Below, piece by piece: positions 6,328-62,620 of a stretch of 64,000 nt of DNA. Source of the DNA: Candidatus Woesearchaeota archaeon (GTDB lineage Archaea; Nanobdellota; Nanobdellia; Pacearchaeales; GW2011-AR1); contig CAYURQ010000003.1 of the NCBI GenBank assembly GCA_964447315.1, forward strand, positions 10,078 to 74,077, written 5' to 3'. How positions within the stretch are numbered: the first letter of the stretch is position 1; the number at the start of each line of letters is the position of its first letter. Position numbers and translations under genes: made by a program. The notes below the pieces were generated by a model. That model worked only from the letters and a program-made list of their open reading frames with translations. It was not told the DNA's origin and did not search any database.

Positions 6328-6364
6328 GTAATTTTATAAATTTATAAAATTTGGTATATTTAAT

Positions 6365-6697: not shown

Positions 6698-6710
6698 AAT
6701 AAAAATTAAA

Positions 6711-7306: not shown

Positions 7307-7307
7307 A

Positions 7308-8213: not shown

Positions 8214-8214
8214 A

Positions 8215-8628: not shown

Positions 8629-8629
8629 A

Positions 8630-9744: not shown

Positions 9745-9783
9745 TAAAGAAAGGTTTTTAAATAAAAAACTATTATAATAATT

Positions 9784-10104
9784 ATGAGAAATAAAAGAGG
9801 TTCAAGTATGGCTACATCAACAATTGTTTTATTGGTTATTGCTGTATTGATTCTTGTAGTATTGGTATTGGGTTTTACTAAAGGATGGAGTACTTTTGCT
9901 CCTTGGTTAGCATCGGATAATATTGATAATATTGAAAAATCTTGTAGTGTTGCTTGTTCAACAAATAGTGAATTTGGATATTGTTCTAAAAAATTAACTG
10001 TTAAAGATGGGGAAAATGATCCTTTTGAGGCAACTTGTGAAGAATTATCGAATAATCCAAGGTATTCAAATTATGGAATAGACCCTTGCCCTGATTTATG
10101 TTAG
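9784..10104 (+). CDS. Short pilin-like protein (106 aa), candidate major pilin, six Cys
   Basis: MRNKRG|SSMATSTIVLLVIAVLILVVLVLGF, then a small domain with 6 Cys. It is the only pilin gene preceded by an AT-rich gap (9745-9783). Confidence 0.65.
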   Translation: MRNKRGSSMATSTIVLLVIAVLILVVLVLGFTKGWSTFAPWLASDNIDNIEKSCSVACSTNSEFGYCSKKLTVKDGENDPFEATCEELSNNPRYSNYGIDPCPDLC

Positions 10105-10315
10105 ATATTTTATTTTTAGTTAAATTTTTAAATTCAATTTAATTATTTTTTGTAAGTTAAAATGACATCTAATTCTGAAAGACGTAATAAGAAGAAAGAT
10201 AAGCAAAAAGAGAAAAAAAAGAATCCTTATAAGAGAGGTGGAAGAAATAGAGTCAATAAAAAAGTAAAAAATTAAATTCAAACAAGTTTATAAATTATAA
10301 TTTCTAATTTTTATT

Positions 10316-11167
10316 ATGAAAGAGGTTTTTTTAATTATTCTTGGAATTGCATGGATTGGATTTGCAATGCTTCAGGATTTAAAAAAAAGAGAGATTGCAA
10401 ATTGGTTGAATATTTCTTTGGTTGTTTTTGCATTATTTTTTAGATTTTTTTATAGTTTGTTTTTTGGAATTGATAATGGAGAGGGATTTAGTTTTTTAAT
10501 TCAAGGATTAATTGGTTTTGGGGTATTCTTTTTAATTGGAAATTTGTTTTACTATTCAAGGCTTTTTGCAGGAGGAGACGCAAACTTAATGGTTGCTTTG
10601 GGAGCTGTTTTACCATTTTCAATGAATTTAACTGAAAATATTAATTTAGGGGTTTTATTTTTGCTTTTATTCTTGCTTTGGGGTGCTATTTATGGAATCT
10701 CTTGGAGTATTTATTTAGGATTTAAAAATAAAAAGAATTTCAAGAAAGAATTTCAAGAAAGATTTAATGAAAATAAAAAAGTTGTTTATTTATCTTTAGT
10801 ATTAGGAATAATCTTCTTATTTTTTGGAATATTTGAAATTTCTTTTATTGCTCTTGGGATATTTATTTTTATTTTACCTTATTTTTGGTTTTTAGCTAAA
10901 TCAATTGATGAGGCTTCAATGGTTAAACTTGTAAATCCAATTAAGTTAACTGTTGGTGATTGGCTTTACAAAGATGTTGTTGTTAAAGGAAAAACAATAA
11001 AAGCTACTTGGGATGGATTAAATGAAAAAGATATTTCTTTATTGAAAAAGAATAAGAAAAAAGTTAAAGTAAGATATGGCATTCCTTATGCACCTGTATT
11101 TTTCTTGAGTTTTTTAACTTTAGTTGTTTTATGGTTGATGGGGTTTAAAGTATTTTTTATTTTTTAA
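10316..11167 (+). CDS. Prepilin/preflagellin peptidase, A24 family (PibD/FlaK/EppA-like)
   Basis: Two aspartyl motifs in the expected TM context: 'AMLQDLKKREIANW' and 'FAGGDANLMVALGA' (GxGD-type). Polytopic. Terminates the pilin operon. Confidence 0.8.
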   Translation: MKEVFLIILGIAWIGFAMLQDLKKREIANWLNISLVVFALFFRFFYSLFFGIDNGEGFSFLIQGLIGFGVFFLIGNLFYYSRLFAGGDANLMVALGAVLPFSMNLTENINLGVLFLLLFLLWGAIYGISWSIYLGFKNKKNFKKEFQERFNENKKVVYLSLVLGIIFLFFGIFEISFIALGIFIFILPYFWFLAKSIDEASMVKLVNPIKLTVGDWLYKDVVVKGKTIKATWDGLNEKDISLLKKNKKKVKVRYGIPYAPVFFLSFLTLVVLWLMGFKVFFIF

Positions 11168-20600: not shown

Positions 20601-21712
20601 TTCCAAGAGGGGAAGCAGAGTCTTTGATTAATGAAAGTATTAAAATAATTGAAAAAATGAAACAAAGTAATTTTTCAACTAAAGATGTGCAGGAATATCT
20701 CAATGAAATGAATTCCAGTTTAAATATTTTGGATTTTGGAGGCGTTGAAGAAAATTATCAGCAATTAAATGAATTATATGAAGTTGCTGAAAATTCAAAT
20801 AAATTAATTGAAGAACTTGGATTAAGCATTTCTAATTCAGAATATAAAGGTATTGAAGTTATTGAAGCAAAGAAAACTTTTTTAGTTGCTAAGAAGGCAT
20901 TTCAAAGAGGAGATTATCATATGGCTTATCAAAAAGTAAAAGAAGCTCAATTAACATATGCATTAGAAACCAAAGGAAAGTTTAATATTTTAAGATATGT
21001 TAAAAATCATCCATTTAATTCATTGATGTTTGTTTGGATATTTTTTACAATTTTCTTGGCTATTTTTATTTCTTCTAAATATGTTATTTATAAAAATAAA
21101 ATTAGAAATTTAAATTCAGAAGAAATATTGCTTTTAGATTTAATGAAAGTTGTTCAAAAACAATGTTTTGAGGAAAATAAACTTTCAATGGGACAATACG
21201 GAGAAGCAGTAGCACAATATGAAAATAAGTTAAGCAAGGCTGTTCAGAGAAGAGTTAATTATGAATCTAGGCTTGCAAATTTATTTAATATTAGAGGAAC
21301 AAAAAAAGCATTGAATTTAGAAAGAAAGAGACTTATTGAGTTAATTAAAGATATTCAAGAGGATTATATGCTTAAGGGGAAACTTGAGACTAGAATTTAT
21401 GAAGGTATGTTAAAAAGCTACTCTACTAGATTAACTGAAGTTGAAGAGGGCCTTGTATTTTTTGAGGCTCGTAAAGCACTTAGAGGAAAAGGATTTTTTA
21501 GTGCTTTATTTATTCAAGGAAATAAACAAGATAAAATAAATAAAGAAAAAATAAAAAGCGAAAAAGATATTATAACACAAAAAGAAAATAAACCTAAAAA
21601 TTCTTTTAATAAAAAGAAAAAACTAGAAAAAAGAGATATAAGAAAATTAAAAAAAAAAGCAAAACAAGAATATAAAAAAAGACTAAAACAAAAAAAAAAA
21701 CAAATTAAATAA
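17636..21712 (+). CDS. Giant surface protein, C-terminal part: last LamG modules, Ig-like region, poly-Gly linker, helical stalk, TM anchor, coiled-coil and poly-Lys tail
   Basis: The frame is open from 17474 (54 codons before the first ATG) and continues the interrupted LamG module. 'SGGGGGGSSG' near 20229. TM 'LMFVWIFFTIFLAIFISS' near 21022-21085. K-rich end. Confidence 0.8.
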   Translation: MIFNRSLTNEEVNNLYNATDIYFEQQKSNLEEGTYNYSVYANDRGGNMEILSRNLTVDRTNPVLIFVEPTPEEGGGTDGNLQFNVSILDEQGFSIWFEDNNSLLGYWSFDYYNETGIFDNSSSELFGMAEFQNGVGLNNLTKGKRGYGLEFDGDDDYLNISEISDFDLGNETSFTVTAWAWDKDPGGGNTWMNIVEKGNSRAIYGSSDYGAGFGFGRYSSTANRFAFGISDGNNGGYFSSNTLSSGYHFLTMVVDRNSDLMYGYVDGVLADSLDISSYGEISSPGEPLRIGYGNFNWNGSVDEVMIFNRSLTLQEIQDLYNATSSQFFERTYSNVDAGYHNYSVGVVDRAGNFVRYYRGFDVDDTLPEYEIVDPSPGNATYTGDFVINVSVSEEHLNNVTFDWNGTNYSLNITDDYARNTIQYTNISINATRVDNSTNLWEVLFENIYLGIGQSYWYRMFFKDKGGNQNSTSLRVIYGNNPPVFKFVNQFPNLSIEVDPNITINITTNVTDSDSDISIVILQWKKWGESYSNITMVNYSGTEKSQLLWMNFTPTQEGIYNYRIFANDSYGVENYSSEYNVSVYWDCSWTVNSSFDALAGYNENKKVGVLIINNTGDSEYATSSCSLNFRTTYNLVEGKVYFNNYYFKDQTFLGVGAGQTESILVNFSYGSEIAQDNLIITTTEIGGISNNNTINTTSTLITLRDGPYLYNEITTYPSSVYLISDTFILDGYLRNLMGSVIPNATNTAYNVSSYWSLPSGFSGNASTLEYENISDNVVRNNINVISFSDLASMTPGSKTFTLYSTGVNNTSGTIKDASGNSVISDSVSINFLCYSVSDGFCVEECGNSQDPDCPIETSEVVVEVSGGGGGGSSGVGNTGIREISEERFELVIGEKQEFPLIIENKFTVPKEDIIIEASNIDRTEIKINPSKISRIDPKSEREIKVILSSKKYLTQGTYDIIFTISGVVNDNGKKRSFTEKKTMQLYLIEIPRGEAESLINESIKIIEKMKQSNFSTKDVQEYLNEMNSSLNILDFGGVEENYQQLNELYEVAENSNKLIEELGLSISNSEYKGIEVIEAKKTFLVAKKAFQRGDYHMAYQKVKEAQLTYALETKGKFNILRYVKNHPFNSLMFVWIFFTIFLAIFISSKYVIYKNKIRNLNSEEILLLDLMKVVQKQCFEENKLSMGQYGEAVAQYENKLSKAVQRRVNYESRLANLFNIRGTKKALNLERKRLIELIKDIQEDYMLKGKLETRIYEGMLKSYSTRLTEVEEGLVFFEARKALRGKGFFSALFIQGNKQDKINKEKIKSEKDIITQKENKPKNSFNKKKKLEKRDIRKLKKKAKQEYKKRLKQKKKQIK

Positions 21713-47516: not shown

Positions 47517-47520
47517 TTTA

Positions 47521-47592
47521 TGATCCTGCGCAGAATTGAACTGCAATCTCATCCATGTCAAGGATGCGTCTTAACCATTGGACTACAGGATC
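47521..47592 (-). tRNA. tRNA-Val (anticodon GAC)
   Basis: The reverse complement folds as GATCCTG...CATCC-TTGACAT-GGATG...TGCAG-TTCAATT-CTGCG-CAGGATC-A. Confidence 0.85.
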
Positions 47593-47683
47593 TCAAAAAT
47601 AAAAAAAACCTTGAGTTTCTTTTGAACTTTCTGGAATCCCTGAAAAATAAAATCCAAGAAATATTTAAATATGTTCTTTATTT

Positions 47684-47896
47684 GTGTTATTTATGATAAA
47701 TAGGCATGATAAAAGAAGAGGAGGTAATCATATATTTTTTTTTATTTATTTGATTTTAGCTTTATATTTGGTTAATTCAGGATTTAAATTTATTACAATG
47801 CCTGATTTTATATTAAATATTGAAAATTGGATAATTATTATTTCAGGTGGATTATTGTTTTTTGCAGGATTTAAATTTTTAAAAAGAAAATATTAA
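47684..47896 (+). CDS. Small two-TM membrane protein
   Basis: GTG at 47684 or ATG at 47693. Two hydrophobic helices. Confidence 0.4.
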   Translation: MLFMINRHDKRRGGNHIFFFIYLILALYLVNSGFKFITMPDFILNIENWIIIISGGLLFFAGFKFLKRKY

Positions 47897-48016
47897 TTTT
47901 TTAAATTATTTATAAATTATTTATACTTACTAAGTTAATAAATTACTAAGTAAGTTATTTAATAAGAAAACTTTATATACTTAAATTCTCTTAATTATTT
48001 TAGGAAAGAGGAGAGA

Positions 48017-48145
48017 ATGAAAAAATATTTACTTCTTATAGAAGATGAAAGGCTTTGGGAAAAGTTCAAAAAATCTATTAAAAAAGACATAAATACTGAA
48101 CTTATTGAACTAATAAAAGAAAAAGCAGAGGGTAAAAATGATTAG
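48017..48145 (+). CDS. 42-aa ribbon-helix-helix-like small protein (tentative)
   Basis: SD 'aggaaagaggagag' upstream. MKKYLLLIEDERLWEKFKKSIKKDINTELIELIKEKAEGKND has a strand-helix-helix pattern. Overlaps the next ATG by 8 nt. Not in the ORF track. Confidence 0.4.
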   Translation: MKKYLLLIEDERLWEKFKKSIKKDINTELIELIKEKAEGKND

Positions 48146-49967
48146 AGGCAAAAGAGGGCAATTAACAATATTTATTATATTAGCAATACTTATTGTAGCA
48201 ATTGTTTTATGGTTTTTTTTATTTAGGCAACCCTCTAGTCCAACTGTCTCCAGGGAATTTCAGCCTATTTATAATAATTTTATTAATTGTCTTGAAGAAG
48301 ATCTTTCTTTAGGAAGTTCTGCTTTACAAACGCAAGGAGGGTATATTGAATTACCAGATTATCAAGCAGGAACTCTTGCTTATCCTTTTTCATCTCAATT
48401 AAATTTTGTTGGAGCAGAAATTCCTTATTGGTATTATGTTTCTGGAGGAGGAATTCAAAAATCTCAAGTTCCGAATATAGAAAATATGGAATTGGAACTA
48501 GAGAATTTTGTACTAAGTAAATTTAATTCTTGTGAATTTCAGAGTTATTATGATCAAGGATATACTTTATTTTTAGAACAAGACCCAAAAGTAGATGTAA
48601 AAATAAAAGACCATGAAATTATTCTTGATTTAGATATGGATTTTGTTGCTTATTACGAAGATGATAGGATTGTGGTTGAGGTACATAAGATTTCAATTAA
48701 TTCTGATTTAGGGATTTTATATAAAGATGCTTTGAAAGTTTATGGATATGAGCAAGAAGAATTTTTCTTAGAAAAATATGGACTTGATATTCTTAATTTA
48801 TATGCTCCTGTTGATGGAGTTGAATTTACTTGTAGTCCAATGGTTTGGATTGCTGATAATGTATTTTCAGATTTACAAGAAGCAATTGAAGTTAATACAA
48901 TGGCTTTAAAAAATGGGAATGATAATGATTATTTTTCAATTGATGTTGGCACTGATAATGGTGTTAGATTTATTAATTCTCAAAATTGGACTAGGAGTTT
49001 TGAAGTTAATCCAACAGAAGGAAATGTTATGGTTGCTAATCCAATTGGAAATCAAGCAGGAATGGGAATTTTAGGATTTTGTTATGTTACTTATCATTTT
49101 GTTTATAATATGAATTATCCTGTTTTAGTTCAGATAACTTCTGATGATACTGGGGAGGTATTTCAATTTCCTATTGGAGTTGTTATTAAAGGAAATCAGC
49201 CAAGAGAAGCTTTAAAAGGAAGTGCTTCTGCTGGTCCTGAAGTTGAAATTTGTGAAGATATGAGTGTTCCTACAAGAGTTGAGGTTTTTAATAGTTATGG
49301 ACATATAATTGATGCAAACATTTCTTATAATTGTTTATATCAAACTTGTAGTATTGGAGAAACATATGCTGGTTCAATAGTAGAATATTTCCCTCAATGT
49401 GTAAATGGTTTTGTAATCGCTAATTCAGAAGGATATGAACAAGGAAGAGTTATGTATTCGAGTATTAATCAAGGACAAGTAAGTATTTTTTTGGATAAAG
49501 AATATGAAAAACCAATAAGATTATATGTAGATGGTAAAAGATATACTGGAGAAGCTTTGATTAATTTTATTACAGATGAAAAATCAATTGCTGTATCTTA
49601 TCCAAGTCAATCAAATATTAAGTTGAGTGAAGAAGAATATGAAGTCCATGTTTATGTTTATACTGATTCTTCTTTAACATTACCTGATTTTAATACAGAA
49701 CAGTGTGTTGAGGTTCCTAGAACTTTAGGGGGAATGTTTGGATTAACAAAAGAACAATGTTATGAAGTTGAAATTTCAGAACAAGCTGTTACAAATGCCT
49801 TAACTGCTGGAGGTAGAGGAAAAGTATTCATTACAGACAATCAACTATCTCTTTCAAATTTTATTGAAATTAAAGTTGAGAGTTTGCCTAGACCAGATTC
49901 CTTAACTCAATTACAAGAAAATTATATTTTATTTGATGAAAAAGATGTGGAGGTTAGTTTTATATGA
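48138..49967 (+). CDS. 609-aa extracellular protein with class III (prepilin-type) signal peptide
   Basis: MIRGKRG|QLTIFIILAILIVAIVLWFF. Large Cys-containing ectodomain. Its TGA overlaps the ATG of the giant gene (ATGA). Confidence 0.7.
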   Translation: MIRGKRGQLTIFIILAILIVAIVLWFFLFRQPSSPTVSREFQPIYNNFINCLEEDLSLGSSALQTQGGYIELPDYQAGTLAYPFSSQLNFVGAEIPYWYYVSGGGIQKSQVPNIENMELELENFVLSKFNSCEFQSYYDQGYTLFLEQDPKVDVKIKDHEIILDLDMDFVAYYEDDRIVVEVHKISINSDLGILYKDALKVYGYEQEEFFLEKYGLDILNLYAPVDGVEFTCSPMVWIADNVFSDLQEAIEVNTMALKNGNDNDYFSIDVGTDNGVRFINSQNWTRSFEVNPTEGNVMVANPIGNQAGMGILGFCYVTYHFVYNMNYPVLVQITSDDTGEVFQFPIGVVIKGNQPREALKGSASAGPEVEICEDMSVPTRVEVFNSYGHIIDANISYNCLYQTCSIGETYAGSIVEYFPQCVNGFVIANSEGYEQGRVMYSSINQGQVSIFLDKEYEKPIRLYVDGKRYTGEALINFITDEKSIAVSYPSQSNIKLSEEEYEVHVYVYTDSSLTLPDFNTEQCVEVPRTLGGMFGLTKEQCYEVEISEQAVTNALTAGGRGKVFITDNQLSLSNFIEIKVESLPRPDSLTQLQENYILFDEKDVEVSFI

Positions 49968-52900
49968 TAAATAAAGGAAAAAATATTTTTAATTTTGTTT
50001 TATTGTTTTTAATTTTGTTTTTAATAATTGGAGTGGTTAGTGCTTATAGTTCTTCTTGGATGGGATATAAATATAATGACATTGCTGGAACAGGAAGTTT
50101 TATGCAAAATAGTTTAAGATTTGACAAATCAATGTGTGAACAGGGTAGTGATTTTATTTTACAGATTGCTCCTTTTGGATGTGAGCCAGCTGTTGTTAGA
50201 AGTGATTTATTAGAGGAAAATGATGTTCCTGTTTTTTGTCAAATTGCTGGAACTAAAATAAATCCTTTAATTGATGTTGAAGCAATTAAAACAATGACTA
50301 TTTCTGGAAAGCATACTGGTGGTGTGAAAGGATTTGCTTATCATCCTTCTCAAGCTGCTTTAGGATTATTTCCAGATGGAACTATTGAAAATCCTGTTTT
50401 AGAAAATTTAGGATATGTTGTTGTAATTCTTAAAAGAAATCCAAATGAATCTGCAATGCCTGATTATGTTGAGGGTAATTTAACAGCTAGAATAAGATAT
50501 GATATTGATAAAACTTTTGGTGTTGGAAGAGCAGAATATTATTTGCCTGTTATGTCAGAAGCTGAATGGAAAGATTCTTTCTTAGGATATGGTTTTTGGA
50601 ATGGAAGGGGATTTTTAAGAGCAGATTATGTTGAAGGGGATAAAGCAAGAGTTTCAATTTATTCTGGTTCTCAAGTTAATACAGGAAGTTTTTCAGGAAT
50701 TAAAGATTATTCTCAATTAGGTTTTACAAGTCATGTTCTTAAAGTAGGAGAGAAAAGCAATGAAATTTTCTTACCTGGTTTTGATCCTTGTAGAGCTTCT
50801 TTAAGTTTAAGATTAAATTCACTAGAAGATCCAGATACAAGAGCAAGAATAACAGTTAATTCAGAAATTGTTGAAATTGGTCAAAATCAAGATTTCTTGG
50901 AAAATAAATGTGAAGTTTTAAAAATTGCAAAAAGAGGACTTTATCAGTCTGTTGAAATTAGTTGTTTGGAAGATGATGGAAAAAGAGATATATTTACATT
51001 AAGTATTTCCCCGAGAGTTGAATTAGAGATTTCAGATTCTAATGATGTTTCTAAAAAAGAAACCCATGAATATGAAATAGGTGATTATTTATTTGAAGAT
51101 AAAAGTGATTTAAGTAATATTAAACATATTTATTTAGGATATGTTGGAAGTGTATCTCAGTCAAAGGATATTCAAGACATGTTTGTTGTTTTAATATCTT
51201 CTCCTGATTTGAAAACTAAATTAGATTCAGCTCAATTAGATTCTGTTACTAATTATGTTAAATATAGAAAGGCAGAAGCTAATACTGGAGATGATTTTTT
51301 AGATAAAGCAATACAAGGTTTAGGAGCTGCAACATCTCAAGTTGTTGAAGCAGGTTATTATCTTTTTGAAGGAGAGGATTTTAAAGTAATTCCATTTCAA
51401 AAAAATGGTTTTGAGCATGATGAACTATATAGAGGAAAAATAATTAAAATTAAGGGATTTGCAAAAAATAGTGCTTATAATCCTGAGTATACTTTAAGTG
51501 GAGAAAAAGAATATGAAAAAGCAATGCAAGATTTTAACTTAGTTGCTGATTCTTATGGTGATGCAAAATCTAGTGAAAATGATTTAGAAACTTATGGTGA
51601 AAAGGCACTTTTTCAAGCAATAAAAACTTCAGTTAGGGCTGGAAAAAATTTAGATACTTCTGATTTATGTGTAAAGTTCAAACAATTATATCCTTTTTCT
51701 TTGAAAAATTATGAATTAAAGAATTATTGTGATAATAGTTATTTGGCCTCTAGTTCTGGTTTTCATACAAAAGAAGTTTTAGTTAATGGAAATTTAAGGC
51801 AACTTTCTTTTGATAAAATTATTGAACCTTCGTATCAAGAATATGGTATTGAAGTATTAGTAACTGGGCCTAGTGGTTCACAAACTTATAGACTTCCTAA
51901 ATCTAGTAGAATTTCTTTAAATGAAGTTAGGGGTGATGCTGTTAGTTTAGCTAGTGAAGAATATTTTACATTAGAGGATTTAGAAAAAGATTATGCTGAA
52001 ATAAGAGTTAGATTTGCTGAAAGTGTAACTGAAGTAAGTTTTGATGAGCAAAATGTTCGGCTTTATTTTAATCAGCCTCAAAGAGTTGGTGCATTTGAAT
52101 TTTTAATTAAAGAAATTAATTTGCAAAAAGTTGCGAGAGTTAGTGTTGAACCTTCTTTTAATAATCAATTTTCTAATTCAACATTTCCTTTTAAGATTGG
52201 AATTGAAAAAAGAGCAATTCAATTAACTCCTGAAAAGATTAATAAAAAAATTAATAGATTAGATAAATCTATAGAAGGTTTACAAGGTAAAGTTGATTTT
52301 TTAGGTCAGACAGTTGAATGGGGAAACAAAGCTTGTTTAGGAACAGGAGCTGCTTTAACTCTTAAAAATTTGATTAAGAATTTTAATGGAGACTCAATTG
52401 CAAGAAATATGATTATGACAGGAGATGGAGGGTATAATGAAATATGTGAAAAAGCAGTTATTAGAGAAGAATATGAAAGTATTGATCAGTGTTTCTTAGC
52501 AAAATCAAATGAAATTGATAGAAAAGTAAAGCAATATTCAGAGGTTATTAATGAGCAAAATAATTATATTAGTAAATTAAAAGATGATTCAAAAGAAACA
52601 AGTGGGACTGGAAATATTTTTGAGCAAGGAATTATTAACAATGAAGAAGTTGTTTCAGCATATTTGAAAAATGAATTAACTTATGAACAATTACAATCAA
52701 CTCTTAATGAAATTGGTTATGTTGAAGATGGATTTTTTTACTTGAGTAAGAATCAAGATGGAACTTTTGATAAAGAAAATGGAGGAATTAATTTAAATGA
52801 AATAAAAGCCACATTAGAAAAAGGTGAAGGATATTTCAGTGAAGGAACCCTTTCTTTAGATGATTTAAGAGATATTGAACTTTATAGAACAATTCTTCAA

Positions 52901-55900
52901 CAAAATGCAGATGATCCAAATATTGAAGTGGATGAAATGGCTAAAAAAGAATTATATGATGTTCTTTTTGATGTTAATTTAAATACAAAGCAATCAAAGA
53001 AGAGAAATACTCTAGCAGATAATCTTGGAATTGATCCAAGCTTGCTTGGATATATGGAAACTAAAGATCCTGAAAAAATAAAAAAATATAATTATTTAGG
53101 TTTAAAGGCTGGAGGATTGGGATTGGAATTAAAAGATGTAGATGGTAAAACTTCTTTAGATACAAATTCTCCTTTATATGCATTTAGAACAAATGAGGAT
53201 AAAGAATATATTCTTGTTTTAAATGATGCTGGAGATGGTAAAAATCTTCCTATAAAAACTTATGATTCTGATAATGATCCTTCAACAGATAACTCTATTT
53301 ATCTTTATTCTTCAAGTGGAGAATTAATTAAAAAGGATGATTCTAGATATGAGGATTTTCTTGATGATTTTTCAGATGGGGTTACTTTTGTTGTTTATGA
53401 TGAAGCTTCTTATCATAATAGATATTTAAATCCAGAAGTAAGATATTTTGAGGATGCTCCTTATAAAGGATATCCTGCTGTTGTTCCTGTTGAAAGAGAA
53501 ACTGGATGGTATGCTGCTACTAAACCTGTTTTACCTGTTGGAGCTAATATTGCTTCTTATGATACTTCTGGAAGAGTAAGTAGTTTTTGGTTATGTAATG
53601 TTGGTGAAAATGGTCTTGAAAATTATATTTCAGGAGATGATAATTGTCAAATGATTAATTTAAACACTGGAATGAGTTTTGATATGTTTTATGCATTAGG
53701 CATTGATAGAACAAAAGAATTAATTAATAAAGCTGTTAGAAATATTGAACTTGCTCAAAGGGCTTATAAAAATGGAGTAAGAGCTGTAAGAATTGAAGGA
53801 GAAAAATATACTGTTGGAAGTCCTGCTGCTGCAACTCCAACTGTTCAATGTCAAGAATTTATGTCTCCTAAGGATTGTAATATTTTGTTTAATGTTTGTG
53901 ATCCTTTTATTTGTCCTAGTTCAAGATGTGATTTAGGGGGAACTTATCCTGTTAGAGATGTTATTCAATCAGGAGTTATTGGAAGTATTGCTTTATGTTA
54001 TCCAAATGCTAAATGGCATGGGGGAGATGTTTATGTTCCTGTTTGTGTTTCAGGAGTTCATGCTGGTTTAGATGGGTGGTTGCAAGTTCAAAAAGCTTAT
54101 AGGGATTGCTTGCAAGAAAATTTAGAAACAGGTGAGACAGTTGGAATTTGTGATGAAATGCATAGCATTTATATGTGCGACTTTTTCTGGAGACAAGCTA
54201 GACCTCTTGCTCAATTAATATTACCTAAATTAATAAGTAAAATACTTGGACAAAGTTCTCGTGGTGGTGGAGAATATTTATCTGTTCAAGATGCATGGGA
54301 AACAGCTGGTAATTCAATTGATTATTTCAAACAATATTATGCTAATCATGTTTTTACTGCTTTTAAGAATAGAAATGTTGATGAGATTGGAGCAGAAGTC
54401 TGCAAGAGTTTTCCATCTATTTTATTTCCAGATGGAGCTAGTATTGTGGACTCATTAACTCAAGCTTATTCTCCTGTACAATTTCATGGTAAGTTCAGTG
54501 AAATACCTATGACAACTGCAACAAATCCCCCCTTATCTCATTATAAAGTAACTTATATTATATATGCAGGACAAGATAGAGGGGCTTATTATAGAGTTTA
54601 TTTGAGAGGAGATAGTACAAGTTCTTATTTTCAAGACACTTCTTTTAATAGATATGTTGCTTCTGGATATATTCCAGCTGGAGATTCAATCTCTGAATCA
54701 ATAGATGAGCAATGGCCTAGTGGGTATAGGCAGTTATGTATTTCTGTAAATGGGCAAGAAGAATGTGGTTTTAAACAGGTTTCAACTTCATTTGCAGTTG
54801 ATTATATGAATGATTTATATTTGCAACAACAAGCAAGTCAAACAGATATTAAAACAGAAAGTGAATGTGTTTCTGGTTCAACTAGTCTTTATAGTTTATT
54901 GAATCCTAATTTGCAAGAAGGAGTTGAAACTGCTATTAATCCAGAAATATATAATAAAGGAATAATAAGGGTTTGTGCAACTAATAATCCTGGAGTTGGA
55001 ACAGACATTCATGCAGAGGGAGAAGATGCAAGATGGGTTGCTGTTGGATATTGTGGAGATAAAAATATTAAATGTTGGCAAGACCAAAATAGTGTTAAAG
55101 ATGTTATTGAAAGTTATTCAATTGAAGAAAAAACATTAGATACAACTAGTCAACAAGCATTAGAACAATTATTTGCAGATGGAAATTATCTTGGTGCTGA
55201 AGAACTTAAACAAGAACTTGAAAAGATTCTTGGTTTAAATAATCCTAAAGATAAAATAGATCCTTTAACAGAATTACTAGATAAAACATTTTATAATAAA
55301 GATAAAGCAAATATTTATTTGGAAAGAGGAAAAGCATATGCTTCTCAAATTGTATATTGTCCTAGTTTTTGTCTTGATGGAGAACACTTGGTTAAAGGAT
55401 TATTTAATTATACTACTAGAAAATGTTTTCCTGGAAAAGATGTTATTGATGATTGCGATGGTAACGGGTGTTTTGAAACTTCTGCTGGAGGAGGGGCATT
55501 ATGTAATGCTGAAGAATGTACTTTTTGTGTTCCAGATGTAGAAAATGAAGTAGGTGCTTTTGGAGCTATTTATGAAGGAACTATTAATTCAACTGGGCAT
55601 TGTGTTGTTCCATTATTTTCAAAAGAATATTTATTTGAAAATTGTTTAAGTGGAACTATTCCTGGATGTGCTCCTGCAGGAAAGAGTGGAAAATGTTTAA
55701 GTAATACAAATGCTGGTTTTGTTAATATTGATGAATCTCCTATAATTAGATTTAAATATAATACTCTTCTTAGTTTTTTTCCAAATAATCTTTGTATTAA
55801 ATATTTTAATGGGGCTTGGAGATATAAACATACTTGTGGGTTATCAAATCCTAAAAAATGGCCTGTTGTTAATTCAAATCCTGGAGTGGATAAAAAGGCT

Positions 55901-58498
55901 GATGAAATAATTCAAGCAATGTCTCTTTATTCCACTGATTATATTCAAGGATTAGATGCTTTGATAACTGCTGTGGATATAATGGGTTCTAGAGATATTC
56001 AGGTTGGAAATAAATTTTTTAAGTTAACTGCTCCTAGATTATCTTTGCAAAATGGAGTAAGAGCATATCATGATAAAGGAAATGCAAATTTTAAATTTCA
56101 ACTTTTAGGTTATGGAAATTGGAATTCTTGGAAGTTTAAACCTGCTAAAGATGGGATTTATTTTCAGTATAACAAAAATACTAATAGTTGGGAGTGGGCA
56201 TTTACAGGATCATTTTATAGGCCAGTTAGTGATAAAACTTATGATGATATTGTTAAAGATACTTATGCAATTAATAAAGGAGCTAGTTTAGGTAAAAATG
56301 ATATAGAATTATTAAACTCTCTTACAAGATTAGATAGAGCCCAAGGAGCAAGTGTTTTATTTAATGTAGTTAAAGCAGATAATATAAATTATGTAGAGGA
56401 TTGCAAAGGATTTTTTGGAGGAACTTGTACTCAAGAAAGTAGATGTGATAAGGATAAAATTCTTAAAAATGTTTTGACTGATTGCGAAGAGAATGGTAGG
56501 GTTTGTTGTTTATCAGATATTACTAGTTGTGTTGATGATGTAGGTAGGGAATGTGTTGCAGTTGAGGATTGTCCCTCAGAAAGAATTCAAACTTCAAATA
56601 ATGATTGTGAGGCTTTAGGGAAAGTATGTTGTATTGATGAAGAACAACAGCAAATTATTTCAGAAGGAGAGTGTAGTGATTGTAAAGAAGATTATTTTGA
56701 AAGATGTACAAAAGAAGAATGTTTAGATCTTGGAAGACATTTAAATAAAAATTGTGTTTTTAAAAGAGATATTCTATCTGGAGGGTTTTTATTTGGAGGA
56801 ATATGTGTTGAAGAAGAGGAACAAAAGGAAACTTCTGTAGTTGTTTGTCCAACACCTCCTGGTTCAAATATTCCTGGAACTCAAAAATCATGTAAAAAGC
56901 AAGATTCAACTTCTACTAGTACTGGAAATAATAATCTTCAACCAGGACAGAGTACTTGCACTCCTTCTTCTACTGATTCAACAAAATCTCTTTGTGCTCC
57001 AAGCAATACCCCTGAACAACAGGAAATAGTAGAGGCTTGTACTCCTGATTCATGCAATATTCCTGAAGTTACTGAAGAAGAAGTTGAAGTTGAATGTGAA
57101 GATGCAACTAATTTGCAAAATGGAGATAGTGTTATTTGTACTGTTATTGATGTTACTAAACACATTATTTGTCCTTTTGTTCCTGATTTGCAACCTGGGG
57201 TAGATAGTCTGCCTTGTCGTATAACATCTGGAAATGAAGAAATAGAAAATGAGGATTATCTTTGTGAATTATCTGCTTTTGAAGATACAGGAGAATGTCA
57301 AAATGCAAAAGGAGAGGTTCTTGAAGTAGAAGCTGAAGAAGATTTAGTAGGTGATGAAACAAAAGGAGAGCAAGTAACTGTTAAAGTTAATGAAGTTAAA
57401 AATTCTGATTCTAGATATATTGGAGATAGTTGTGGAAATAATGGAAGATGTATTTCAATAAGTTCTGGAACTATTTGTGAGGGGATTATAAAAGATGGTT
57501 TATGTCTTGGAACAAATGATATAAAGTGTTGTGAACCTATTGAAGAGCCTTCTGGTGATTCAAAAATTGTTTGTCCTTATACTTATCCTTCACAAATGAC
57601 TTCTTCTCAACTTGCTTGGTCAATAACTGATTGTAATGTTAAAGATTCTTATTCTAATGATAATTTTAATATTCTTTGTGATGTTCCTTCTGTTGGAAGT
57701 TATGCAAAAGTATCTTGTGAATATTTGGGTTCTTCAACTGAAATGTGGTGTAATTTATTAGGAAGAGAAAACAATAAAAAAGCAACTTGTTATTTTCCTG
57801 GAGATTATGAATTAACAGATTATCCTGGAAAACCAAAGGTTTCTAATACTGATACTAATTCAAATATAAGAATAAGATTATTAGAAGAATTAGAGAGATT
57901 AGAAGGAACAATTGTTTCTGGTGAGGACTTTAAAACTTATGGGACTAATCAACAACCAAATCAACATTGTTCTAATGCTGTTTATGGTGCTTTAGGTACT
58001 GCTAATTGTGGATTGTCTAGTGTTTATTATTCTGATGAAATAGGAGCTTCTTACACATTTAATTATAAAGGAACTCAATATACTAAAGAAGTTGGAACTT
58101 TAAGTGATGGAGTTTGTGTGGGAGCATCTAGTGGGGGGACTCTTGGTTCTGAGGTTTCTTATGATGATTTTTTAGATACTTTAGTTCCAGGAGATATAAT
58201 TGATGTTTTTTACAGTGATAGACTTTGTCATGGAATAATTTTTGTTGGTTGGGAAGATAAATTAAATTATGAGGCAAGAATTTTTGATTGGAATGGTCAA
58301 ACTATTGATCAATTTCAAATGGATTCTGAAAGTGTAATGTGTGATGAGTCTGACGTAAAAGTTTATCGTGATAGACATTATTGTAAGATTTATAGATATG
58401 CAGATTTTTATGTTGGCCTTAATCCTGGGTCTAGAGAAAATACAAATCCAATATATAAATCATGGTATCCTGTAAATTCAGATATATACAGAATTTAA
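49964..58498 (+). CDS. Giant (2,844 aa) secreted Cys-rich protein with C-terminal papain-like (NlpC/P60-CHAP-type) candidate domain
   Basis: Uninterrupted 8.5-kb ORF in an AT-rich genome. Sec signal 'VLLFLILFLIIGVVSA|YSS'. Tandem CC-terminated Cys modules and an S/T/P linker. 'QHCSNAVYGAL' ... 'GDIIDVFYSDRLCHGIIFVGW'. Confidence 0.85.
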   Translation: MINKGKNIFNFVLLFLILFLIIGVVSAYSSSWMGYKYNDIAGTGSFMQNSLRFDKSMCEQGSDFILQIAPFGCEPAVVRSDLLEENDVPVFCQIAGTKINPLIDVEAIKTMTISGKHTGGVKGFAYHPSQAALGLFPDGTIENPVLENLGYVVVILKRNPNESAMPDYVEGNLTARIRYDIDKTFGVGRAEYYLPVMSEAEWKDSFLGYGFWNGRGFLRADYVEGDKARVSIYSGSQVNTGSFSGIKDYSQLGFTSHVLKVGEKSNEIFLPGFDPCRASLSLRLNSLEDPDTRARITVNSEIVEIGQNQDFLENKCEVLKIAKRGLYQSVEISCLEDDGKRDIFTLSISPRVELEISDSNDVSKKETHEYEIGDYLFEDKSDLSNIKHIYLGYVGSVSQSKDIQDMFVVLISSPDLKTKLDSAQLDSVTNYVKYRKAEANTGDDFLDKAIQGLGAATSQVVEAGYYLFEGEDFKVIPFQKNGFEHDELYRGKIIKIKGFAKNSAYNPEYTLSGEKEYEKAMQDFNLVADSYGDAKSSENDLETYGEKALFQAIKTSVRAGKNLDTSDLCVKFKQLYPFSLKNYELKNYCDNSYLASSSGFHTKEVLVNGNLRQLSFDKIIEPSYQEYGIEVLVTGPSGSQTYRLPKSSRISLNEVRGDAVSLASEEYFTLEDLEKDYAEIRVRFAESVTEVSFDEQNVRLYFNQPQRVGAFEFLIKEINLQKVARVSVEPSFNNQFSNSTFPFKIGIEKRAIQLTPEKINKKINRLDKSIEGLQGKVDFLGQTVEWGNKACLGTGAALTLKNLIKNFNGDSIARNMIMTGDGGYNEICEKAVIREEYESIDQCFLAKSNEIDRKVKQYSEVINEQNNYISKLKDDSKETSGTGNIFEQGIINNEEVVSAYLKNELTYEQLQSTLNEIGYVEDGFFYLSKNQDGTFDKENGGINLNEIKATLEKGEGYFSEGTLSLDDLRDIELYRTILQQNADDPNIEVDEMAKKELYDVLFDVNLNTKQSKKRNTLADNLGIDPSLLGYMETKDPEKIKKYNYLGLKAGGLGLELKDVDGKTSLDTNSPLYAFRTNEDKEYILVLNDAGDGKNLPIKTYDSDNDPSTDNSIYLYSSSGELIKKDDSRYEDFLDDFSDGVTFVVYDEASYHNRYLNPEVRYFEDAPYKGYPAVVPVERETGWYAATKPVLPVGANIASYDTSGRVSSFWLCNVGENGLENYISGDDNCQMINLNTGMSFDMFYALGIDRTKELINKAVRNIELAQRAYKNGVRAVRIEGEKYTVGSPAAATPTVQCQEFMSPKDCNILFNVCDPFICPSSRCDLGGTYPVRDVIQSGVIGSIALCYPNAKWHGGDVYVPVCVSGVHAGLDGWLQVQKAYRDCLQENLETGETVGICDEMHSIYMCDFFWRQARPLAQLILPKLISKILGQSSRGGGEYLSVQDAWETAGNSIDYFKQYYANHVFTAFKNRNVDEIGAEVCKSFPSILFPDGASIVDSLTQAYSPVQFHGKFSEIPMTTATNPPLSHYKVTYIIYAGQDRGAYYRVYLRGDSTSSYFQDTSFNRYVASGYIPAGDSISESIDEQWPSGYRQLCISVNGQEECGFKQVSTSFAVDYMNDLYLQQQASQTDIKTESECVSGSTSLYSLLNPNLQEGVETAINPEIYNKGIIRVCATNNPGVGTDIHAEGEDARWVAVGYCGDKNIKCWQDQNSVKDVIESYSIEEKTLDTTSQQALEQLFADGNYLGAEELKQELEKILGLNNPKDKIDPLTELLDKTFYNKDKANIYLERGKAYASQIVYCPSFCLDGEHLVKGLFNYTTRKCFPGKDVIDDCDGNGCFETSAGGGALCNAEECTFCVPDVENEVGAFGAIYEGTINSTGHCVVPLFSKEYLFENCLSGTIPGCAPAGKSGKCLSNTNAGFVNIDESPIIRFKYNTLLSFFPNNLCIKYFNGAWRYKHTCGLSNPKKWPVVNSNPGVDKKADEIIQAMSLYSTDYIQGLDALITAVDIMGSRDIQVGNKFFKLTAPRLSLQNGVRAYHDKGNANFKFQLLGYGNWNSWKFKPAKDGIYFQYNKNTNSWEWAFTGSFYRPVSDKTYDDIVKDTYAINKGASLGKNDIELLNSLTRLDRAQGASVLFNVVKADNINYVEDCKGFFGGTCTQESRCDKDKILKNVLTDCEENGRVCCLSDITSCVDDVGRECVAVEDCPSERIQTSNNDCEALGKVCCIDEEQQQIISEGECSDCKEDYFERCTKEECLDLGRHLNKNCVFKRDILSGGFLFGGICVEEEEQKETSVVVCPTPPGSNIPGTQKSCKKQDSTSTSTGNNNLQPGQSTCTPSSTDSTKSLCAPSNTPEQQEIVEACTPDSCNIPEVTEEEVEVECEDATNLQNGDSVICTVIDVTKHIICPFVPDLQPGVDSLPCRITSGNEEIENEDYLCELSAFEDTGECQNAKGEVLEVEAEEDLVGDETKGEQVTVKVNEVKNSDSRYIGDSCGNNGRCISISSGTICEGIIKDGLCLGTNDIKCCEPIEEPSGDSKIVCPYTYPSQMTSSQLAWSITDCNVKDSYSNDNFNILCDVPSVGSYAKVSCEYLGSSTEMWCNLLGRENNKKATCYFPGDYELTDYPGKPKVSNTDTNSNIRIRLLEELERLEGTIVSGEDFKTYGTNQQPNQHCSNAVYGALGTANCGLSSVYYSDEIGASYTFNYKGTQYTKEVGTLSDGVCVGASSGGTLGSEVSYDDFLDTLVPGDIIDVFYSDRLCHGIIFVGWEDKLNYEARIFDWNGQTIDQFQMDSESVMCDESDVKVYRDRHYCKIYRYADFYVGLNPGSRENTNPIYKSWYPVNSDIYRI

Positions 58499-61759: not shown

Positions 61760-62620
61760 ATGAGGAAGCATCATAAAATTGTTTTAGGGGGTTTTAGTGC
61801 AATTGTAATGGCATTTATGGTTATCGTTGGTATTTTACTTAATGGTTTAATTGTTAAGCAACAGATTAATCATAATGAAGTTGTTGATAGAATTGATAAT
61901 TTAAAAATTGATACTCAAAGTAAATTAAATGAATTATCAGAAAGTTTAATGCAAACTCGTTTAGATGTTGATATTATTAATGATAAAGTTGGAGTTATTG
62001 ATGAAGAATTTTCTTTGTTGAAAGATACAGTTAGTGATGATTTTTCAAATATTATTGAAGATGTAATTCCAAGTGTAGTAACAATTAAAACAGATATTAG
62101 TCAAGGAACAGGTTTTATTATCACTGGAGATGGATTTATTGTTACTAATGCACATATTTTGTCTGGGGGAAAACAAGTTGAAACTTTAAATTATGAGCAA
62201 TCTAAATTTAAGACTTCTTTTGTAGGATATAATTCTAATTTAGATTTAGCTTTACTTAAAATAAATGGGGAATTTAATCAATTAAATTTAGTTGAAAATT
62301 CTGATGATATAAAAGTTGGTGATAAAGTTGTTGCTATTGGAAATCCTTTAGGCTTGCAATATAGTGTTTCTCAAGGAATTGTTTCTGGTGTTAATAGAGT
62401 GGGTCCTAATGGTTTAAATGTTTATATTCAAACAGATGCTGCTTTAAATCCTGGAAATTCTGGAGGACCTTTGATTAATTCAAAAGGAAAGGTTATTGGA
62501 ATAAATAATTTTAAAAGTAGTTCTGGAGAAAGTTTAGGTTTTGCACTTGAATCAAATGAACTAAGAAACGTTGTTAATAATATTTCTTTACAAGAACTTA
62601 ATTTAACTGTTTTACCTTGA
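61760..62620 (+). CDS. Membrane-anchored trypsin-like serine protease (HtrA/S1C-like, no PDZ domain)
   Basis: N-terminal TM. 'VTNAHIL' (His), 'DLALLKI' (Asp), 'TDAALNPGNSGGPL' (Ser). Confidence 0.8.
   Translation: MRKHHKIVLGGFSAIVMAFMVIVGILLNGLIVKQQINHNEVVDRIDNLKIDTQSKLNELSESLMQTRLDVDIINDKVGVIDEEFSLLKDTVSDDFSNIIEDVIPSVVTIKTDISQGTGFIITGDGFIVTNAHILSGGKQVETLNYEQSKFKTSFVGYNSNLDLALLKINGEFNQLNLVENSDDIKVGDKVVAIGNPLGLQYSVSQGIVSGVNRVGPNGLNVYIQTDAALNPGNSGGPLINSKGKVIGINNFKSSSGESLGFALESNELRNVVNNISLQELNLTVLP

Follow-up and report, generated by a model that had tools for sequence, protein, structure and literature searches.

What might an archaeon of the Pacearchaeota/Woesearchaeota type do with a giant exported protein whose gene overlaps that of a pilin-like partner? 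This question is raised by three overlapping ORFs on the + strand of the window (the whole 64,000-nucleotide stretch of DNA analysed here), which encode proteins of 42 aa (48017-48145), 609 aa (48138-49967) and 2,844 aa (49964-58498). The 42-aa and 609-aa genes overlap by 8 nt, and the 609-aa and giant genes share ATGA at 49964-49967, so the overlapping same-strand trio described in the original prediction is present in full. Judging by these stop/start overlaps, the three genes may be translationally coupled. A chance origin of the two large ORFs is excluded by sequence comparison, because both proteins have hundreds of full-length homologues. In this study, we put at about an even chance the reading that the locus is a copy of a surface-anchored complex with which DPANN archaea of this type breach bacterial cell walls.

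Layout, conservation and promoter of the locus

The locus is chromosomal and flanked by housekeeping genes, not carried on a mobile element. The genes 3' of the giant gene, GatD among them, lie on the opposite strand, and no immunity-like gene was found downstream of the giant at the locus. A 70-aa two-TM membrane protein (47684-47896, + strand) was found by tblastn in 38 related loci with a median identity of 38%. In many loci it is the gene immediately 5' of the pair, and it is a possible fourth conserved component. The 58-aa ORF at 47520-47696 was rejected as a gene, as it is really a tRNA-Val on the minus strand. Two LamG/Ig-like surface proteins of 1,335 and 1,358 aa are encoded in the window as well.

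In 81 of the 82 loci, the next gene 3' of the 609-aa homologue encoded the giant core; in the lone exception the contig ended there, which makes adjacency complete in the 81 testable loci. Where both genes were called (79 loci), the junction was a 4-nt start/stop overlap in 47 and a gap of 0-49 nt in 13. Relatives of the 609-aa protein are encoded in at least 354 GTDB species genomes labelled Woese-, Pace- or Nanoarchaeota, and the identity of the pair among relatives was 47-54%, compared with 61% for ribosomal protein S3Ae. The original prediction had named absence of the pair and its coupling from related genomes as one refutation; the opposite was found, both being conserved.

A BRE/TATA-like promoter, AAGAAAACTTTATATA (47964-47979, + strand), precedes the mini-ORF. 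Among 43 sequences (the window and 42 related loci), most keep its consensus TTAAGAAACATTTATATAT at 29-63 nt 5' of the point where the mini-ORF starts. The sequence GGAGAG at 48010-48015 (+ strand) reads as a Shine-Dalgarno-like site. Upstream of the promoter lies the palindrome TTACTAAGTAA (47943-47953, + strand), a candidate operator, which reads TTACTNAGTAA upstream of the mini-ORF. The mini-ORF (MKKYLLLIEDERLWEKFKKSIKKDINTELIELIKEKAEGKND) was found in 36 of the 65 loci with enough upstream sequence, and its median identity among relatives was 78%. Its nucleotide entropy at codon positions 1, 2 and 3 was 0.43, 0.20 and 0.96, the pattern expected of coding sequence, and by this measure the mini-ORF is coding. 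Of 35 related loci that carry the mini-ORF, 26 have an exact copy of the palindrome and 34 have one with no more than one mismatch, whereas none of the 30 loci lacking the mini-ORF has an exact copy (Fisher p = 7.5e-11). The 1.02 Mb of loci contain just 27 exact copies. Because the palindrome strictly co-occurs with the mini-ORF, the 42-aa product is probably a small regulator, and this co-occurrence indirectly suggests a DNA-binding role. Neither Pfam nor hhalign nor a profile search of the PDB supported the ribbon-helix-helix (RHH)-like character first ascribed to it.

The prepilin-signal protein and its giant partner

The 609-aa protein begins with MIRGKRG/QLTIFIILAILIVAIV, with cleavage predicted between G7 and Q8. 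The signal motif, [KR][GSA] followed by Q, is conserved in an alignment of 53 relatives, in which Q8 and 10 Cys are invariant; the class III signal originally read in one protein is thus a prepilin-type signal of the whole family. Its homologues number more than 1,590 and are about 605-640 aa long. The signal and N-terminal helix are followed by a globular part of approximately 580 aa, and the protein has no match in Pfam, NCBIfam or PDB and no similarity to known pilin domains.

As had been claimed, a prepilin peptidase (Peptidase_A24, 10316-11167, + strand; PF01478, E 4.9e-11) is encoded approximately 38 kb away, on the upstream side. It stands beside type IV pilus-like genes, and we presume that it processes the 609-aa protein. 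The pilus-like machinery (9-10104) includes, all on the + strand, a T2SSE ATPase (9-2039; Pfam T2SSE, E 4e-14), a polytopic membrane protein (4099-6327) and seven small pilin-like ORFs (6663-10104). All seven carry, like the 609-aa protein, a K/R-K/R-G/A motif followed by a hydrophobic stretch.

The giant begins with a Sec-type signal peptide, MINKGKNIFNFVLLFLILFLIIGVVSA/YSS (49964-50044, + strand; putative cleavage site at the slash), and S-x-A closes the signal-peptide consensus of its family. This N-terminal stretch is the sole hydrophobic or TM-like window of the protein, in agreement with the expected Sec signal without a TM anchor. The conserved scaffold (aa ~28-1800; 50045-55363, + strand) is covered by essentially all 119 homologues listed and contains 29 invariant Cys. 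By conservation profile, it is divided into module A (aa 50-350), module B (aa 520-870), a variable helical region (aa 870-1150) and module C (aa 1150-1720). The scaffold of approximately 1,800 aa matched nothing in Pfam, NCBIfam, PHROGs or PDB (profile of the core against PDB), and Pfam gave no match for any of the three proteins, even with the giant cut into 300-450-aa tiles. At least one Ig-like beta-sandwich is present in the scaffold. The most conserved stretch of the giant (aa 1296-1440; 53849-54283, + strand; column identity 0.62-0.88) is Cys-rich and partly hydrophobic, and AlphaFold2 gave it a pLDDT of 25-45 despite 34 aligned sequences.

The scaffold is followed by a nearly unique Cys-rich insert of approximately 820 aa (aa 1801-2619; 55364-57820, + strand), which was aligned by at most 12 of the 119 homologues listed. 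Three units of approximately 35 aa with six Cys, starting at aa 2147, 2189 and 2490 (nt 56402-56509, 56528-56632 and 57431-57532, + strand), follow the pattern C-x5-7-C-x5-7-C-x8-12-C-x6-7-CC, which a shuffled tail matched 0.013 times on average. These units correspond to the tandem modules first described as "Cys-knot-like". The count of more than 100 cysteines in the giant was too high, the actual number being 92; the S/T/P-rich linker was recovered at about nt 56861-57163 (+ strand), with S/T/P making up 34% of residues 2301-2400.

Exchangeable tails of the giant

The giant ends in a domain of approximately 220 aa (aa 2624-2841; 57833-58486, + strand) with the candidate triad C2669, H2756 and D2775. 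Across its family, the C, H, F and W positions do not vary, and conservation of D reaches at least 90%. In the AF2 model (pLDDT 82), a helix begins at the Cys and a strand begins at the His. The best Foldseek matches were MepS/Spr, and these were weak (E 0.14, TM 0.25-0.42). The hhalign probability against family A8 was 99.3%, and 6 of the 46 members of that family match Pfam NLPC_P60 (best E 6e-7). Through this transitive homology and the weak structural matches, the tail appears to be a divergent NlpC/P60-like Cys-His-Asp domain, and the papain-like Cys/His signature first noticed there falls within the NlpC/P60 superfamily.

Other giants carry other enzymes at this place. The NlpC/P60-like domain was found in 62 of 120 giants, and a tail without a recognised hydrolase domain in about 37% of the 120. 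Precomputed Pfam domains on giant homologues include SLT, M23, VanY and Trypsin_2; SLT was found in 15 of the 119 homologues listed, and the closest relative listed has VanY at the place of the window's domain. Among 48 tails from GTDB genomes there were 13 SLT, 2 Amidase_2, 1 Amidase_3, 1 VanY/M15, 1 Glucosaminidase and 12 NlpC/P60-like domains. SLT, Amidase_2, Amidase_3, VanY/M15, M23 and glucosaminidase are murein-specific families, and at least seven murein-specific enzyme classes were gained repeatedly by the tails. The proposed "hydrolase warhead" for a bacterial envelope fits this variability.

Proposed role, known systems and rival explanations

We propose that a single BRE/TATA-like promoter, preceded by the palindromic operator, drives the three genes, and that the 42-aa protein probably binds the palindrome as a regulator. 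The 609-aa protein would be exported by its prepilin-type signal and cut before Gln8 by the A24 peptidase of the same genome, keeping a hydrophobic N-terminal helix of approximately 20 residues that may either serve as a membrane anchor or make the protein a component, perhaps the tip, of a type IV pilus-like fibre. The giant would exit via Sec and, having no anchor of its own, would be held at the surface by this pilin-like tether. Its disulfide-rich scaffold may serve as a stalk or adhesin, and its exchangeable tail would bear murein hydrolases, in the window a predicted peptidase or amidase of the NlpC/P60-like Cys-His-Asp type. Once a bacterium is touched, the tail would cut peptidoglycan locally, allowing the archaeon to attach to the host wall or to use the opening for access.

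Several established systems resemble this arrangement. In type IV pilus minor-pilin/PilY1 tip complexes and modular pilins, a large Sec-signal non-pilin adhesin likewise adjoins a prepilin-signal gene, with peptidase, ATPase and other pilin-like genes in the same genome. In contrast, neither sequence comparison nor Pfam links the window's pair to PilY1/PilC or known pilin domains, and the 609-aa partner is far larger than ordinary pilins. CdiB/CdiA and Rhs polymorphic toxins also combine a surface giant of conserved N-terminal bulk and exchangeable C-terminal effector with a dedicated adjacent partner gene. The window's locus differs in having no downstream immunity gene, TpsB-type transporter, known pre-toxin motif or detected homology, and the giant's effectors are wall hydrolases instead of nucleases or pore formers. 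To our knowledge, murein is generally assumed to be absent from these archaeal lineages; if so, no immunity gene would be needed. The same murein hydrolase classes (SLT, M23/LytM and CHAP/NlpC-P60) are combined, likewise on a large structural protein, in the multi-hydrolase proteins by which phage tails and Gram-positive conjugation systems penetrate the bacterial wall locally, whereas the giant's scaffold is unrelated (no PHROGs match) and its locus is chromosomal amid housekeeping genes, not mobile.

Earlier work proposed that large SLT-domain proteins encoded in these lineages bind bacterial walls or degrade them (PMC8204110, PMC9723730). These proteins share with the giant the lineages, a size of up to about 3,000 aa, an extracellular location and the proposed role; the window's giant differs in lacking SLT and ending in a cryptic NlpC/P60-like domain. 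The family fam00969 (PMC8204110) is likened to the giant family by its description there, not by sequence. The keyword-matched passages of both papers mention no 1,800-aa scaffold, exchangeable tails, obligate pilin-like partner or small regulator. The module is thus not wholly "undescribed": the giant family was already noted as large lytic-transglycosylase proteins, whereas for the pilin-like partner, the swappable tails and the hidden NlpC/P60-like domain no description was found in the portions of the literature covered.

The pair could instead be a structural envelope complex, in which the giant would form an outer canopy, the 609-aa protein a membrane-anchored stalk and the hydrolases accessory decorations. 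The two-gene operon of Sulfolobales SlaA/SlaB likewise couples a very large protein exported by Sec with a smaller one anchored in the membrane, and this layout, the presence of the pair amid housekeeping genes in every testable related locus, its conservation approaching that of ribosomal proteins, the strongly conserved canonical promoter, the Ig-like beta-sandwich and the 37% of tails without a recognised hydrolase all suit such a role. We nevertheless believe it unlikely: S-layer proteins usually diverge much faster than this pair, the core profile matches no solved structure by sequence, a purely structural layer has no obvious use for the seven or more murein enzyme classes of the tails, and the window's LamG/Ig-like surface proteins could be the envelope proteins instead. 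The pair also has no sequence match to SlaA/SlaB, its anchor is N-terminal and prepilin-type instead of a C-terminal TM helix, and murein hydrolases sit on the tails of its giant family.

Alternatively, the giant might be a bacteriolytic exoenzyme set free as a weapon of predation or competition, with the 609-aa protein only aiding export or maturation. This would explain the Sec signal, the missing anchor and the polymorphic hydrolases, and bacteria are killed by archaeal peptidoglycan hydrolases (PMC12352652). We consider this distinctly improbable, as it is hard to see why a diffusible lysin should need a conserved scaffold of 1,800 aa in which 29 Cys are invariant, and strict adjacency and frequent translational coupling to a protein with a membrane/pilus helix argue for surface retention. 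We give very little credence to action on the archaeon's own envelope (division, wall remodelling) or on archaeal hosts, because the tail families are murein-specific; a weaker argument is that no murein or pseudomurein synthesis gene was found within the 64-kb window, which is part of the genome. Such action would suit the universal presence and vertical inheritance of the pair in the lineage, and the hosts of all DPANN archaea cultivated so far are archaeal (PMC11291902).

Some observations weigh against the wall-breaching reading. A core-genome place and 47-54% identity are uncommon in a protein engaged in an arms race with hosts and would also suit a structural envelope role, the scaffold has no recognisable fold and its best-conserved stretch modelled poorly, the window's own tail is assigned to NlpC/P60 through transitive homology and weak structural matches, and about 37% of tails have no recognised hydrolase. 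In its favour, studies have shown that the episymbiosis of Saccharibacteria is driven by type IV pili (PMC9894109), and the killing of bacteria by archaeal peptidoglycan hydrolases (PMC12352652) suits this reading too. For these archaea, we believe that the 609-aa protein and the giant are probably a tool for gripping and opening bacterial hosts.

Gene layout and conservation of the module

The module consists of three overlapping genes on the + strand: a mini-ORF of 42 aa (48017-48145), the gene of a 609-aa protein (48138-49967), and the gene of a 2,844-aa giant protein (49964-58498). The overlaps named in the original prediction, 8 nt between the mini-ORF and the 609-aa gene and ATGA between the 609-aa gene and the giant gene, were confirmed, and the reading of the three genes as chance ORFs was rejected. 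The G+C content of the window is approximately 28%. The nearby genes encode GINS51, YbjQ, ribosomal protein S3Ae, GatD, and an amino-acid permease, and SRP54, FtsY, L1, L10, aIF2-alpha, RadA, and a KaiC-like protein are also encoded in the window. These neighbors are archaeal housekeeping genes; the module therefore belongs to the core chromosome, and the archaeon is of the DPANN type. The relatives retain synteny with S3Ae, GINS, and YbjQ, and because the flanking housekeeping genes are syntenic, a mobile-element or viral origin was rejected.

The giant gene is followed at its 3' side by a 121-aa ORF and GatD, both on the opposite strand. No cognate immunity gene was found directly downstream of the giant in the window, and other genomes have TFIIB or GatD at this position. 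The Rfam search of the window returned only tRNAs, including a minus-strand tRNA-Val (GAC) at 47521-47592, and a 58-aa ORF called over it (47520-47696) was discarded as an artefact. The scan of the window for sigma-70-type promoters and terminators was uninformative for archaeal DNA. A 70-aa membrane protein with two TM segments (47684-47896; motifs ...LYLVN...W...GG...) is conserved in 38 related loci, where it immediately precedes the pair, and it could represent a fourth part of the module. A secreted-type trypsin-like protease is encoded near the module at 61760-62620, and the contig of the closest relative has the same protease layout downstream of GatD and the permease.

When one genome per GTDB species was scanned, at least 354 loci encoded a relative of the 609-aa protein, with record labels of Woese-, Pace- or Nanoarchaeota except for one "Bacillota" record. 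That locus, L032 (DATKUW010000047.1, labeled "Bacillota bacterium"), carries the full pair and the mini-ORF and is most likely a mis-binned archaeal contig. The scaffold part of the giant was encoded directly downstream of the 609-aa gene in 81 of 82 loci, the exception being a contig end, so the co-occurrence check supports the pairing. Among the 79 loci in which both genes were called, the genes share a 4-nt start/stop overlap in 47, are separated by 0-49 nt in 13 and by a spacer of 125-1,171 nt in 16, and seem to overlap further in two, probably as start-call artefacts. Several of the spacers are coding: a protein of approximately 57 aa with two TM segments (for example, MDEELLTWYGNVLNFVILIYLVLNT...) occupies spacers of approximately 300 nt in L007, L017, L038, L048, L059, L063, and other loci, and unrelated inserted genes of up to approximately 290 aa lie between the two genes elsewhere. 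Compared with the window, the 609-aa protein has a median identity of 47%; the values for modules A, B, and C of the scaffold are 48%, 34%, and 54%, respectively, and S3Ae and GINS51 reach 61% and 66%.

The pilin-like partner and the small upstream gene

The 609-aa protein begins with MIRGKRG and continues after the predicted cleavage site with QLTIFIILAILIVAIV. Its basic N-region ends in [KR]-[GAS] right before this site, which bears out the class III (prepilin-type) signal proposed for it. Across 53 aligned homologues, Gln8 (position +1) is invariant within a motif that reads [KR][GSA] before the cleavage site and Q-[LV]-T-I-F-I-I after it, and all 10 cysteines are invariant as well. The hydrophobic stretch of approximately 20 residues that directly follows the site, QLTIFIILAILIVAIVLWFFLF, is the sole TM-like window of the protein. 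More than 1,590 full-length homologues of approximately 605-640 aa were found at roughly 50% identity, all unnamed and all from Pace-, Woese- or Nanoarchaeota assemblies. The globular part of approximately 580 residues had no match in Pfam (pilin families included), NCBIfam, or the PDB, and PHROGs gave two marginal matches, both to families of unknown function.

Pilus-like machinery is encoded in the same window. A T2SSE ATPase (9-2039, Pfam) is accompanied by a polytopic membrane protein of 742 aa without a Pfam match (4099-6327), seven small pilin-like ORFs with the same signal type as the 609-aa protein (6663-10104), and a Peptidase_A24 prepilin peptidase (PF01478; 10316-11167). Because the A24 peptidase, the T2SSE ATPase, and the seven pilin-like ORFs are present, the genome is equipped to process, and possibly assemble, such proteins. 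The region 9-11167 is a complete type IV pilus-like locus, with a GT4 glycosyltransferase encoded at 2683-4008 on the other strand. Directly downstream of this locus, the window encodes two large proteins, of 1,335 aa (13466-17473) and 1,358 aa (17636-21712), which contain LamG (Laminin_G_3) and Ig-like (Big_13) domains and are candidate adhesins or envelope proteins.

The mini-ORF belongs to a family with the pattern MKKYLLLIEDEKLWEKFK..IKKDINTEI..LIKKK, which was found in 36 of the 65 loci with enough upstream sequence. The entropy of its nucleotides was 0.43, 0.20, and 0.96 at the first, second, and third codon positions, respectively; therefore, the protein is under selection, and no other protein of the neighborhood reaches its median identity of 78%. 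The RHH-like character first ascribed to it was not supported: Pfam at E up to 1 gave only Sda (E 0.063), a profile of 27 homologues retrieved no RHH protein from the PDB, and hhalign of the family against CopG (approximate reference sequence) gave a probability of 0.6%. A conserved BRE/TATA-like promoter, TTAAGAAACATTTATATAT, lies upstream of the mini-ORF, and upstream of its TATA box lies the palindrome TTACTNAGTAA (TTACT-N-AGTAA; 47943-47953), a candidate operator, TTACTAAGTAA; palindrome and promoter together span 47943-47979. Across loci, the palindrome precedes the TATA box by 24-44 nt, with spacings of only 24, 28, 32, 36, 40, and 44 nt, and is often accompanied by an extra TTACT half-site. 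It was exact in 26 of the 35 loci with the mini-ORF, present in 34 of them when at most one mismatch was allowed, and absent from all 30 loci that lack the mini-ORF (Fisher p = 7.5e-11). The palindrome is essentially unique per locus. In the related locus L001, it is at 3976-3986. This co-occurrence suggests that the 42-aa protein and the palindrome are a regulator-operator pair.

The scaffold and exchangeable tails of the giant protein

The giant starts with the Sec-like signal that had been predicted (MINKGKNIFNFVLLFLILFLIIGVVSA before the cleavage site and YSS after it) and shows no TM-like stretch elsewhere. A class III signal was rejected for the giant, as its N-terminus is Sec-like with an S-x-A site. 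Its cysteines, put at more than 100 in the original prediction, number 92 and lie mostly at aa 1200-1400 and 1800-2700, and the expected S/T/P-rich stretch was found at aa 2301-2400. Pfam gave no significant match for the mini-ORF, the 609-aa protein, or the giant as whole sequences, nor for nine tiles of the giant, in line with the original prediction, which recognised no named family in the two large genes apart from the C-terminal signature. The giant had no match in NCBIfam or PHROGs either. In the PDB, phmmer and profile searches gave chance-level matches only, whether run with the mini-ORF, the families of the 609-aa protein and of the whole giant, or the C-terminal domain. No large internal repeats were found in the giant, and comparison of the 609-aa family with the giant core revealed neither fusion proteins joining them nor paralogy.

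More than 615 homologues of the giant were found, with lengths of 1,657-3,108 aa among the matches listed and the GTDB genomes. Residues 1 to approximately 1800 are covered by essentially all of the 119 matches listed, and residues 1800-2620 by at most 12 of the 119. Coverage of residues approximately 2620-2844 comes from approximately 30 of the BLAST matches listed and, with an HMM, from 62 of 120 giants. In the near-unique insert (aa 1801-2619), three modules of six cysteines each end in CC, against a chance expectation of 0.013. The scaffold, with 29 invariant cysteines, has conserved modules at aa 50-350, 520-870, and 1150-1720 and a variable helical region between them. Conservation peaks at aa 1296-1440 (53849-54283), with column identity of up to 0.88 and 10 invariant cysteines. 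An AlphaFold2 model of aa 1140-1810 (module C) from 34 sequences had a mean pLDDT of 59, with 80-90 in the flanking beta-rich parts and 25-45 in the most conserved stretch. Foldseek with this model returned generic Ig/FnIII-like sandwiches only (ApaG, TRAP subunits, and GH3 C-terminal domains), and these model-based matches carry no functional information. The stretch aa 1296-1440 may represent a novel fold, or it may need a complex or a membrane in order to fold. Because these 150 or so residues, the most conserved of the scaffold, have no known match and yielded no usable model, they are a good target in the search for new folds.

The papain-like Cys/His signature claimed for the C-terminus is supported by the conservation of both residues and by an hhalign link to a family that matches NLPC_P60. 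Twenty homologous segments have a P-G-D motif in common, an invariant Cys in N-C-x-x-A...V-Y, and an invariant His in G-H-N-x-I-F-I-x-W, together with F-D-W-N-G; across the homologous domains, C2669 and H2756 never vary, and D2775 is retained in at least 90%. In the AlphaFold2 model of the domain (pLDDT 82), the Cys starts a helix (domain residues 50-60), the His starts a strand (136-146), and the Asp closes the strand 151-156. Five of the best six Foldseek matches in the PDB were MepS/Spr NlpC/P60 endopeptidases and the remaining one was a "bacterial peptidase"; Tse1 and the CHAP lysin PlyPy were also listed, all of them weak (E 0.14-1.1, TM 0.23-0.42). Among viral models (BFVD), a phage lysozyme and CHAP proteins appeared at weak E values of 0.015-0.3. 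The domain of the window itself had no match in Pfam, and NLPC_P60 was the commonest sub-threshold match among the homologous domains (3 of 20, best E 0.006).

When 1.84 billion representative proteins were searched with a profile, 164 relatives of this domain were found. The weaker ones form a family of stand-alone proteins of 130-510 aa (alignment A8, members P0313-P0375), in which C, G, H, F, and W are again invariant and the consensus is HCWDW..VY..AG ... PGDW ... GNHSVIF..W. By hhalign, the domain of the giant matched this family with 99.3% probability (E 2.5e-20), and Pfam detected NLPC_P60 in 6 of its 46 members (best E 6.3e-7) and Amidase_6 in two. Against approximate reference sequences, hhalign aligned only the PGD...H motif of E. 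coli MepS (5.7% probability) and, weakly, the WNG motif alone of the LysK CHAP domain; these two comparisons were given no weight. Based on sequence and model, we take aa 2624-2841 to be most probably a divergent domain of the NlpC/P60 superfamily, with the candidate triad C2669, H2756, and D2775 and a predicted enzymatic activity. One stand-alone member comes from a Patescibacteria (CPR) genome; therefore, this cryptic hydrolase may be one that these archaea share with episymbiotic bacteria.

Beyond the scaffold, the homologues differ in their murein hydrolase domains. Precomputed Pfam domains on the 119 matches listed included SLT (15), M23 (2), VanY (1), Trypsin_2 (1), ankyrin, and LRR. The 48 post-scaffold tails from GTDB species genomes contained SLT (13), Amidase_2 (2), Amidase_3 (1), VanY/M15 (1), and Glucosaminidase (1), and 12 of them contained the NlpC/P60-like domain, one with two copies (L053, 17083-19815). 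Tail length ranged from 6 to 1,026 aa, and approximately 63% of 120 giants carried at least one recognised or NlpC/P60-like hydrolase domain. The closest relative among the matches listed (52% identity) has VanY in place of the NlpC/P60-like domain of the window. Because SLT occurs in a minority of the homologues, it is a variable tail module and not a defining feature of the scaffold family; Pfam found no SLT domain in the giant of the window, either whole or in tiles. The conserved N-terminal bulk with exchangeable C-terminal domains resembles polymorphic toxin/CDI systems, but no immunity gene follows the giant gene in the loci examined, and the payloads are murein hydrolases.

Possible function of the module and its significance

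Giant proteins of this kind have been described before. Castelle et al. (PMC8204110) proposed that a Pace-/Woesearchaeota-specific family of large SLT-domain proteins mediates attachment to bacterial walls, and the family of the window fits its fam00969 by description, in size (up to approximately 3,000 aa) and in its restriction to Pace-/Woesearchaeota as judged from record titles. Vigneron et al. 2022 (PMC9723730) treat such proteins as large lytic murein transglycosylases and suggest predation, and a 2025 study (PMC12352652) reports that archaeal peptidoglycan hydrolases kill bacteria and are abundant in Nanoarchaeota. The observation behind the original prediction of an undescribed cell-interaction module is real and biologically coherent, and the prediction itself is supported in part; the giant family is already flagged in the literature and is therefore not categorically new. 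In a limited literature search, within the accessible text, no description was found of the scaffold and its tail exchange, of the pilin-like partner, of the small regulator, or of the cryptic NlpC/P60-like domain. What is new is the two-gene architecture, in which a pilin-like partner is combined with a 1,800-aa scaffold of unknown fold and plug-in hydrolases.

The best-supported reading, which we consider about an even call, is that the pair forms a surface complex acting on bacteria. The 609-aa protein would be processed at its prepilin-type signal and would then anchor or present the Sec-exported giant, whose disulfide-rich scaffold would bear the exchangeable murein hydrolases, and these tails would open the bacterial wall locally upon contact. 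The data establish how the genes are laid out and conserved, their adjacency, their signals, and their domains; the processing, the complex, the enzyme activity, and the target are inferred. The main rival is an S-layer-like structural pair of the SlaA/SlaB type, which would agree with the universality and conservation of the module; however, the tails are murein-specific, and the profiles of the scaffold core and the partner have no sequence match to any solved structure. We regard this rival as doubtful. That the giant is a freely released lysin appears decidedly unlikely to us, and we give very little credence to an action of the module on the archaeon's own envelope or on that of another archaeon.

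We speculate, while holding it to be unlikely, that the pair is the universal host-contact organelle of Pace-/Woesearchaeota, a "lance" at a pilus tip or on a pilin anchor whose exchangeable murein-hydrolase tip opens the wall of a bacterial host, and in which aa 1296-1440 acts as a new membrane-active bridge domain. If this were true, aa 1296-1440 would create a cross-domain cytoplasmic or nutrient bridge, the type of tail would predict the peptidoglycan chemotype of the host, and genomes would reveal the host range of a large group of archaea not yet in culture.

Few uncultivated archaea are as widespread as Pacearchaeota and Woesearchaeota, and, to our knowledge, nobody knows their hosts or their mode of attachment. 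This locus is a concrete molecular candidate for host attachment that is universal in the lineage. If the surface complex proves true, it would support cross-domain symbiosis or predation, with archaea living on bacteria. Experiments would then have well-defined parts to work with, namely the NlpC/P60-like domain, the peptidase together with the 609-aa protein, and the palindrome together with the 42-aa protein, and the type of tail would serve as a genomic read-out that could be matched with the wall chemistry of the host.
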